DNA of 64,000 nt from Acidimicrobiia bacterium (GTDB lineage Bacteria; Actinomycetota; Acidimicrobiia; Spongiisociales; ZC4RG35), in contig OZ244034.1 of NCBI GenBank assembly GCA_965215185.1, positions 640,001 to 704,000 of the forward strand. Reading direction: 5' to 3'. A model generated the notes under the pieces. It had not been told where the DNA came from. It was given only the letters and a program-made list of their open reading frames with translations, and did not search any database. Shown piece by piece: positions 35,617 to 37,038 of this stretch; the first letter of the stretch is position 1; each line of letters starts with the position of its first letter. Both the position numbers and the translations under genes were made by a program.

Positions 35617-37038
35617 TCATCGGTGGGAACGGCATCTTCGCTCGAAGGGGCAGGTGCTGCACCATTCTCCCACCTGAAAGGGAGGAGACGTGGCGTCGAG
35701 GTAGTCCCACTGGGCAGCGGATTCGGCGATTCTGCCCAGTTGAAGAATTAACTTCTCCATCTGGCTTCGCTCCCATACCTTGCGATCACAGACCGGGTCT
35801 TCCCCGATGGTGGAGAGGCGGTGGATGTGAGTGGCCACGGTAGCGCATTTGAGTCGGAGAAAGGCGCCGAGCGCGTACAACTCCGCTTCGAAGGGTTGTG
35901 CCCTTGGTGACGAACCCGTTTTGTGGTCGATCACAGCTGCCGTGCCATCCCCTTCCCGTCCCACCCCGTCGGCGATGCCATACAAGACCACCGAGACAGG
36001 TTTATGACCAGCGCCGAACCGGACCGAGAATCCCAGCGGAAACTCGGTCTCTTTGATGTTGAGGGTGGATGTGCAGGGGAGGCTCAGGTGCTGTCGGTAC
36101 AGAGACTCCATTTCCAGGTCCCCTGAGAAAACCGAGGCGGGTTCATCTGACAGCAAGGCCTTGGCCATCAGTTGATGAAACCTGTTCCCCACCACCAAAC
36201 CGGGGGAAATCTCACGGGAGTAATGATCTTGATCGGGGGGGATGGAGAACCATAGCCTCCAAGCTGCTCTTCTTTCGCAATAGGCCATTTCCGGCAGACG
36301 CGACTTGGAGATCATCAGTCGGAAAGCCGAAGACTTGCGCTTCTTGGGAGGGTTGATCTTCTCCGCTCCTCGGTCGAGGCGGGGAAAGGCATCACATAGG
36401 TCGGTCACCTTGCAGGTTACGCAGTGGGGACCCGCCACGATCATTGGGTCGGAGTTCGCCATCTTTTGGTAGTCGGCCTCCAATTCGGCCAGGACCTCTC
36501 GCGCCTGGTGCCGAGGCATCTCCAGGCGGATCAACTCCCCATCCGCGGTTCTCATCTCATAGGCTTCCAACCGGTCTGGATAGCGGGGGTCGGTGACGAT
36601 GGCGGCGATCTCTTCTGCAGCTGTGGCGAATTCGGTCTCTTCGTCAATCTGCGCTGTCTTGAGTTTGAACATTTTCAACAGACCTTCGGAGCTCGTCTGT
36701 GTGAACTGAAAGGAAACCCTCAGCTTTTCTGTATCAATCGGGATGATCAGATGTGGCCAGTCGCGGTCGATTTCCCCTTGATCGAGCGAGGGCAGGAGCT
36801 TTCTGACTCTATTGACCTGGGCGGCTACGATCGCAGCTTGGACAGGATCGAACTGCTCAGGGGGCGCGGGCTTTGGTGAGTCGATCAGTTCCGCTTCCAG
36901 GGCTTCCCATGTCGCATTCCATCTCCTCAATGAAGGAGTATTCGGGTTCACTGCCGGCGATCGTTCTCCCAGATTGGCAAAGGAACCTGGACACTTTCTT
37001 TTGCTCGGTATGTCGATCAGTTCTTTGGGTGTACTCAT
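35617..37038 (-). CDS. Tandem PD-(D/E)XK (Cas4/RecB-like) protein with two Cys4 Fe-S staples
   Basis: C-domain: [32 protein letters not shown]-domain: KCP and [11 protein letters not shown] with degenerate catalytic motifs. Confidence 0.75.

Follow-up and report, generated by a model that had tools for sequence, protein, structure and literature searches.

A probable single-chain pair of Cas4/AddB-type PD-(D/E)XK domains, each with a four-cysteine staple pattern, in Acidimicrobiia

Nuclease domains of the Cas4 family are known either from single-domain proteins (Cas4, ACE1, Exo5 and MGME1) or attached to helicases (AddB, AdnA/B, RecB and Dna2). The available part of PMC12094033 defines the Cas4-type family by a D-DxK catalytic triad together with one N-terminal and three C-terminal cysteines, which hold an Fe4S4 "iron staple", and describes how single-stranded DNA (ssDNA) reaches the active site via a narrow channel. 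The gene analyzed here encodes a 473-residue protein and lies in a stretch of 64,000 nucleotides from an Acidimicrobiia bacterium (GenBank assembly GCA_965215185.1, contig OZ244034.1, positions 640,001 to 704,000 of the forward strand). This whole stretch is called the window, and coordinates refer to it unless a related locus is named. The protein is probably a single-chain pseudo-dimer of two Cas4/AddB-type PD-(D/E)XK domains with a housekeeping role in ssDNA processing, in which the C-terminal half (C-half) would be the nuclease and the N-terminal half (N-half) a diverged copy that kept the cysteines and lost the catalytic acids.

The open reading frame (ORF) occupies positions 35617-37038 of the minus strand, according to the ORF list and its translation, and the plus strand over the same positions shows many stops and no continuous frame. 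A preliminary description of this DNA, made from the sequence alone, had placed the ORF at these positions; it proved to be real and conserved, with the strand now given as minus, and every motif quoted there was found in the translation at its residue number. These are C16, VSFQF (108-112), FKLKT (124-128) and the cysteine cluster at 205-215 in the N-half, and YCERR (253-257), GNRFH (284-288), GIADG (354-358), IDHKTG (370-375), ELY (386-388) and the cysteine cluster at 460-469 in the C-half. The codon-position GC content of the gene (0.59/0.46/0.66) is like that of adnB, and the same start methionine is present in most of the 37 homologues. The scan for promoters and terminators around the gene returned nothing usable. 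The gene and its main parts are the following:

35617..37038, minus strand: whole gene, 473 codons plus the TGA stop at 35617-35619 (ORF list and translation)
37047..37052, minus strand: AGGAGG ribosome-binding site, 8 nt upstream of the ATG (direct sequence reading)
36346..37038, minus strand: N-terminal domain, residues 1-231, diverged Cas4-like, probably inactive (profile comparisons, Atlas, complex model)
36313..36345, minus strand: basic linker, residues 232-242, a variable region of the alignment (translation)
35620..36312, minus strand: C-terminal domain, residues 243-473, complete Cas4/AddB-type PD-(D/E)XK domain (Pfam, AlphaFold2, Foldseek, hhalign)

The C-half belongs to the Pfam family PF12705 (PDDEXK_1), with an E-value of 5.3e-12 and 46.6 bits against a cutoff of 22, and the match spans residues 243-470 and model positions 2-247 of 247. 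In the AlphaFold2 model its predicted local distance difference test (pLDDT) values are mostly 80-96 (80-96 across residues 280-440). Foldseek gave 24 matches at E <= 0.001, in a table that does not state which query residues were aligned; they include ACE1 (9iab/9iac), SSO0001 (4ic1), AdnA (6ppr), 5zyw and 3h4r, with E-values between 1e-5 and 5e-5, as well as MGME1 and RecE at ~1e-5. The only sequence matches in a profile search of the PDB were ACE1 chains (E 1.9e-4 and 0.002), whose cysteine cluster aligns with C460/C463/C469. Moreover, hhalign compared the C-half with the nuclease domains of AdnA, AdnB and a 381-residue protein, all encoded in the window, at probabilities of 91-95%. No match to the cas4 models TIGR00372 and PF01930 was obtained for the protein. 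The conserved elements of the C-half are listed below; here and in what follows, conservation counts rest on an alignment of 42 relatives, 10 of which belong to a second subfamily.

36277..36279, minus strand: Cys254, first ligand of the C-half staple (42/42)
36175..36189, minus strand: GNRFH (284-288), motif I with His288 (G284, F287 and H288 in 42/42)
35965..35979, minus strand: GIADG (354-358), motif II with Asp357 (D357 in 42/42)
35914..35931, minus strand: IDHKTG (370-375), motif III, D371-x-K373 (T374 and G375 in 42/42)
35875..35889, minus strand: E384-A-E-L-Y388, helix motif past motif III (E384 and Y388 in 42/42)
35782-35790, minus strand: C-x-R, residues 417-419 (C417 and R419 invariant in 42/42)
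35632..35661, minus strand: C460-x2-C463-x5-C469, the C-terminal three ligands of the C-half staple (each in 42/42)

The catalytic D...(D/E)xK triad is thus found in the C-half, with D357 in 42/42 relatives and D371-x-K373 in the window protein. As far as sequence can tell, this half has everything that defines the Cas4/AddB-type family and every element of its active members: His288, Asp357, Asp371-x-Lys373, Glu384/Tyr388, and Cys254 with Cys460/463/469. The intact nuclease of the preliminary description was borne out in this respect, as Pfam, Foldseek and the conserved catalytic and cysteine columns agree.

Regarding motif III, 32 of the 42 relatives have D at the first position and 10 have E; at the third, K occurs in 32 and R in 10, so that 32/42 carry D-x-K and the 10 aligned members of subfamily 2 carry E-x-R. 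The subfamily includes P0037, P0040-P0048 and P0050, and the aligned 10 read E-[F/L/H]-R-T-G in place of D-H-K-T-G. A change from Lys to Arg at this catalytic position is unusual; D357, H288, Y388 and the eight cysteines are kept despite it. It should also be noted that C417 is a fifth invariant cysteine of the C-half, which lies outside the four staple ligands and forms a C-x-R with R419, with a variable middle residue.

The corresponding elements of the N-half are the following:

36991..36993, minus strand: Cys16, first ligand of the N-half staple (C in 40/42; the 2 others are N-terminally truncated)
36838..36849, minus strand: D64-P-V-Q67, motif at the predicted inter-domain interface (D64, V66 and Q67 invariant, P65 nearly so)
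36703..36717, minus strand: VSFQF (108-112), strand at the motif II position (Q111 in 42/42, no Asp)
36655..36666, minus strand: K125-L-K127-T128, motif III remnant with Lys/Arg for the acidic residue (K127 and T128 in 42/42)
36394..36423, minus strand: C206-x2-C209-x5-C215, the C-terminal three ligands of the N-half staple (each in 42/42)

The 1+3 cysteine pattern is present in this half, with an x2/x5 spacing identical to that of the C-half, and C16 aligns with the first cysteine ("CP") of the AdnA nuclease domain. The catalytic triad is lost and only K127 is kept. None of the 42 members has the canonical motif II Asp or the motif III acid; at position 125, 26 carry K and 16 carry R. In hhalign, the VSFQF strand falls on the GlAD strand of the C-half, and K125-L-K127-T128 pairs with DYKT in AdnA and with DHKT in the C-half. 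Within subfamily 1, the mean identity is 61% for the N-half versus 67% for the C-half; the N-half is nearly as conserved and is therefore under selection. Two further claims of the preliminary description, a staple pattern and eroded catalytic motifs in the N-half, were upheld by these columns.

The question of whether the N-half derives from a Cas4-like domain depends mostly on profile comparisons, for which the reference profiles of AdnA, AdnB and the 381-residue protein were built from the window and 16 related loci. Aligned with its own C-half, the N-half gave 173 collinear columns in hhalign (P 0.0012, probability 19%), and the score of 30.3 was reached by none of 60 column and 60 block shuffles (0/120), with 16.1 for the reversed profile. 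The alignment with the AdnA nuclease domain is longer and stronger (194 collinear columns, P 1.4e-4, probability 52%), and it pairs CP with CP, KLKT with DYKT and CxxCx5C with CxxCx5C; its score of 36.4 exceeds all 60 block shuffles (maximum 31.4) and the reversed profile (14.3). Furthermore, the N-half is collinear in one register with the AdnA, AdnB and 381-residue protein profiles. PDDEXK_1 is the commonest weak Pfam match of the N-halves (4/18, best E 0.0089), no profile match at curated cutoffs being obtained, and for residues 176-222 there are weak matches to where PDDEXK profiles end at the C-terminus (PADLOC, E 0.0087; phrog_69, E 0.035). In the Atlas, two N-halves sharing 24% identity were each linked by language-model features to PDDEXK_1 clusters (0.92-0.95). 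The order of helices and strands in the AlphaFold2 models also parallels that of the C-half, which hints weakly in the same direction. Taken with the arguments discussed further on, it is likely that the N-half is a degenerate Cas4-like copy, with a fold that AlphaFold2 modelled at low confidence.

A complex model was also built from residues 240-473 as the C-half and residues 1-231 as its N-half partner, together with two 4Fe-4S clusters. The model reached a score of 0.82, and the best of 3 controls reached 0.01. This mark is attained by 116/157 solved complexes and 2/215 mismatched pairs, counts that calibrate the score only roughly, given that our own alignment was used, a ligand was included (unlike in the calibration) and both chains derive from one protein. 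At least 78% of contacts are shared among the runs, with a partner pLDDT of at least 86. The modelled interface is formed by residues 33-36, 64-70 and 202-221 of the N-half and, on the side of the C-half, by strands 332-340 and 349-355 and residues 263-268 and 446-450, with residues 64-67 touching 264-266 and 448-450. According to this model, the conserved D64-P-V-Q67, G203 and P219 would be interface and not catalytic residues. The pseudo-dimeric nuclease with an inactive half that had been proposed before is consistent with this tight packing and with the missing catalytic acids of the N-half, as a model.

Concerning the distribution of the family, the 37 relatives were retrieved from 5.8 billion protein clusters by word-indexed search. 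Nearly all have 470-493 residues and most 474-493, and the named members among them come from metagenome-assembled genomes (MAGs) of Acidimicrobiia. With the N-terminal part of the most distant relative as the query, another search added subfamily 2, with 14 proteins about 30% identical to the window protein. A profile search with the 42-sequence alignment of both subfamilies returned 39 proteins and no third subfamily; it requires shared 5-residue words, because of which distant relatives may escape it. The scan of 185,579 species genomes gave 16 loci, all in Acidimicrobiia or unclassified MAGs, and no relatives were detected by tblastn in the phage and plasmid collections. The architecture was thus found in this analysis only in Acidimicrobiia MAGs. 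The family may be wider than the searches reached, considering that the Atlas contains PDDEXK_1 clusters of 485-556 residues from Actinomycetota, with 144, 56 and 68 members.

One relative, P0038 (397 residues), has most of the N-half swapped for unrelated sequence and keeps the CxxCx5C and the C-half. The replacement shows a weak match to the phage-integrase C-terminal family (PF00589, E 7.2e-4, residues 62-107), and this protein is possibly a rearranged or mis-assembled copy.

Regarding the genomic context, the ORF list at first suggested an operon formed by the 381-residue nuclease, adnA, adnB, a 183-residue ORF and the target gene, with overlapping stops and starts. The 183-residue ORF (37035-37586, minus strand), which would link the target to adnB, was rejected after six-frame reading as an antisense shadow of dtd, and its translation resembles a wrong frame. 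This shadow frame is matched in 16/16 loci by tblastn because dtd is conserved. The neighbouring genes needed here are the following:

34171-35610, plus strand: radical SAM gene, B12-binding, CUAEP/CCAEP-tail family (NF040546, 528 bits)
37101 or 37110 to 37565, plus strand: dtd, D-Tyr-tRNA deacylase (Pfam PF02580, E 3.9e-54)
37583-40897: adnB-like gene
40804-43821: adnA-like gene
44048-45193, minus strand: 381-residue single-domain Cas4-like protein (PDDEXK_1, E 2e-36), just upstream of adnA
6866-9352 in L005 and 6637-9123 in L012, minus strand: MMPL-family transporter gene of 828 residues between adnB and dtd, in opposite orientation (only these two gaps were checked)

The dtd gene, confirmed by Pfam also at the 2 related loci checked (L005 and L012), converges on adnB and points away from the target, whose start is 62-71 bp from that of dtd. 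On the other side lies the convergent CCAEP-tail radical SAM gene, whose stop is 6 bp from that of the target. It follows that the target is monocistronic and, as dtd lies on the opposite strand between it and adnB, it is not part of an adnAB operon. The wider neighbours are alaS, mltG, aroE, aroC, aroB, nusB-carA, carB, xseA, rmuC and aceE, and a block including aceE, coxG, xdhC and rmuC is syntenic across the 16 Acidimicrobiia loci. Since gene order is preserved along the whole block in this clade, the proximity of adnAB reflects common descent rather than a proven functional coupling. No cas genes were present among the 26 neighbouring ORFs scanned and no Argonaute among the neighbouring ORFs scanned; neither a repeat array nor an Rfam match, CRISPR repeat families included, was detected in the window. 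Within this Acidimicrobiia clade, we describe the target as a monocistronic, vertically inherited gene with core housekeeping genes around it.

Some observations concern the neighbours themselves. The 381-residue protein has its own 1+3 cysteines (C111 and C343/346/352) and is present in 9/16 related loci, most of the others being cut off by the flank limit; in all, the window holds five staple-bearing Cas4-like domains. The C-terminus of the radical SAM protein reads FCCAEP followed by 10 further residues. The listed starts of aceE (minus strand) and the radical SAM gene (plus strand) overlap by 68 bp (34171-34238). In the related loci, tblastn matches begin mostly at about residue 27-43 for aceE (residue 1 in 2 loci and 15 in 1) and at residue 6-16 for the radical SAM protein, and the true starts of both are probably further in. 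The ORF at 55219-56856 (plus strand) encodes a NusB domain (residues 50-135) followed by the small chain of carbamoyl-phosphate synthase (residues 167-539); it may represent a gene fusion or, alternatively, two genes that the ORF finder merged. Finally, a eukaryotic-type (alpha) carbonic anhydrase (50997-51710, minus strand; PF00194, E 1.3e-32) is located amid the aro genes.

Several results weigh against the tandem nuclease proposed here, and most of them concern the N-half, which could instead be an unrelated cysteine-rich domain (Fe-S or Zn) whose 1+3 resemblance is convergent. BLASTP of the N-half against the C-half gave one 33-residue match around the cysteine cluster, and with an E-value of 0.06 it was discarded as proof of duplication. 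Most of the hhalign score between the halves comes from the last helix and the cysteine cluster; with the ends removed only 17.3 remains (P 0.085), which is below the maximum of 18.0 among 60 block shuffles, so that the similarity of the core alone is not significant. The N-half gave P 0.036 with AdnB and 0.076 with the 381-residue protein, and the N-half of subfamily 2 alone gave 0.25 with AdnA. The window N-half matches no Pfam family even at E <= 10, nor was any NCBIfam match obtained for it, and the profile search of the PDB with N-halves gave no match. Its AlphaFold2 model is of low confidence (pLDDT 28-68 as part of the whole protein; 56 for the N-half by itself, with a predicted template modelling score, pTM, of 0.48), and Foldseek gave chance-level matches for this model, none of them at E <= 0.001. 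In phmmer, 1.84 billion representatives yielded only its own family and the repeat protein P0039, which was judged spurious after its sequence was read. The internal duplication of the preliminary description consequently stands in profile-profile comparison (P 0.0012), is not visible in BLASTP and is not significant in the core; comparison of each half with AddB/Cas4 by profiles and AlphaFold2 is clear for the C-half and, for the N-half, gives collinearity with AdnA next to a pLDDT of 56. An unrelated domain is nevertheless unlikely, as the AdnA, AdnB, 381-residue and C-half profiles all align collinearly from end to end in the same register (best P 1.4e-4, 0/60 shuffles), the x2/x5 cysteine spacing, the "CP" context and the "K-T-G" of motif III are shared, and PDDEXK_1 is the top family both among weak Pfam matches and in the Atlas. 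The opposite case, in which both halves are active and the N-half has a non-canonical site made of D64, E161 and K127, could invoke the invariance of these residues in 42/42 relatives and the migration of active sites that is known in the PD-(D/E)XK superfamily. It is very improbable, as the canonical motif II Asp and motif III acid are missing in 42/42, position 125 is always K/R, and D64-Q67 lies at the modelled inter-domain interface and not in a pocket.

Activity and biological role must be weighed as well. Given the E-x-R that replaces D-x-K in the presumed active half of 10/42 members, nuclease activity may not be universal in the family. The N-half is acidic in all 42 relatives (net charge -2 to -16, mean -9.4, pI 5.0); in subfamily 1, the charge of the C-half ranges from near neutral to basic. 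The acidic charge of the N-half would be ill-suited to a generic DNA clamp or DNA-binding role and argues against the DNA clamp or sensor proposed in the preliminary description, which was pure inference. That description also set the gene beside an AdnAB pair, as a possible repair accessory or one acting against mobile genetic elements. A dedicated AdnAB accessory, or a defence factor against phages or plasmids, would fit the proximity of adnB (545 bases in the window, as adnB ends at 37583, and ~0.6-3.4 kb in the 15 related loci that extend far enough to include adnB), the plasmid interference to which solo Cas4-family enzymes are linked in the available part of PMC12094033, and a weak PADLOC match to Cas4 (E 2.2e-4). 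The distance is thus confirmed, but the opposed dtd lies between the genes, which excludes a common operon; moreover, 6/15 loci (L005, L008, L009, L010, L012 and L016) have an extra 2.6-2.9 kb between adnB and dtd, with an opposed MMPL gene in the two examined. The survey of the 16 loci showed synteny throughout, with adnB near in 15 and the opposed dtd between, so the neighbourhood reflects kinship. No defence or mobile-element genes were seen among the neighbouring ORFs and no CRISPR repeats in the window, and the housekeeping block and the lack of relatives in phage or plasmid collections speak against such a role too. We consider it improbable.

Regarding the mechanism, in the tandem arrangement that we favour with moderate confidence, the C-domain would be the catalytic unit, which, by analogy with its family, would bind a [4Fe-4S] cluster and cut channel-threaded ssDNA with Mg/Mn. 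The N-domain would be an old, strongly diverged copy that kept the four-cysteine staple and the Lys-Thr of motif III and lost the acidic metal ligands; it probably holds a second Fe-S cluster and does not cut. It is predicted to pack onto the beta-sheet of the active domain by its staple region (residues 202-221) and the start of the D64-P-V-Q67 helix. In this position it may replace a second subunit as a fixed structural or regulatory partner, which shapes or gates the substrate path or stabilises the enzyme; it would not be a DNA clamp that moves freely. The chromosomal core context suggests housekeeping processing of ends or flaps, and the most likely role would be that of a helicase-independent nuclease that trims ssDNA ends, flaps and overhangs in repair or recombination. 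A bolder proposal, which we regard as a long shot, is a helicase-less, self-contained counterpart of the two-nuclease AdnAB/AddAB machines, in which the dead domain with its own [4Fe-4S] cluster is a redox- or DNA-end-sensing gate for the active domain onto which it packs. If true, it would be a new class of dual-cluster single-chain end-processing nuclease in Actinomycetota.

The architecture, as read from the protein sequence, is a novel variant of a well-known nuclease family. The preliminary description had not recognised it, and our literature search likewise found no description of a tandem Cas4-like protein with two staples; in the available part of the Cas4 phylogenomics paper PMC5704561 the terms "tandem" and "duplication" have 0 occurrences. 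If a catalytically stripped copy fused to its active partner does keep the staple cysteines under purifying selection, the staple would have a value independent of catalysis. This value could be structural, or lie in DNA-end recognition or redox sensing, and the protein would offer a compact system to separate them. The local annotation is also corrected, as the apparent adnAB-linked operon is absent. The practical weight is modest, the family being found here only in uncultured Acidimicrobiia.

Among the described systems, the stand-alone nucleases SSO0001 (4ic1) and ACE1 (9iab/9iac), the latter associated with Argonaute, are like the C-half in fold (Foldseek E ~1e-5), in the D...DxK triad and in the 1+3 cysteine staple. 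They are single-domain proteins of ~200-280 residues, whereas the chain of the target probably includes a further, degenerate copy that has a staple pattern of its own. Unlike CRISPR Cas4 and ACE1, the target has no cas or Argonaute neighbour among the scanned ORFs, and it falls below the NCBIfam cas4 model. CinB of Wolbachia (bioRxiv 10.1101/2025.03.04.641471), compared by its description only and from the available part of that source, has two tandem nuclease domains in one chain, a layout like that proposed for the target. CinB is the toxin of a toxin-antidote operon, unlike the target. To our knowledge, it has no Cas4-type cysteine staple.

A precedent for a PD-(D/E)XK fold without catalysis that is kept for another role in an end-processing machine is RecC, as presented in the available part of PMC1185551. 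RecC is a separate large subunit, whereas the dead domain of the target would be fused to the active one, with its four cysteines kept. We know of no Fe-S staple in RecC. The nuclease domains of AdnA and AdnB (AddB) share with the target the Pfam family and the cysteine staple; that of AdnA is the best profile match of the N-half, and each of the three reference domains also aligns to the C-half with a probability of 91-95%. Both AdnAB nuclease domains have been targets of nuclease-dead mutations, according to titles of PDB entries. Like the target as proposed here, AdnAB has two Cas4-like domains in one particle. Unlike AdnAB, the target has no helicase domain, with PDDEXK_1 as its only domain and no UvrD-type helicase fusion detected. 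Moreover, the two domains of AdnAB are placed in two subunits, whereas those of the target are in one chain, where one of them has no catalytic acids.

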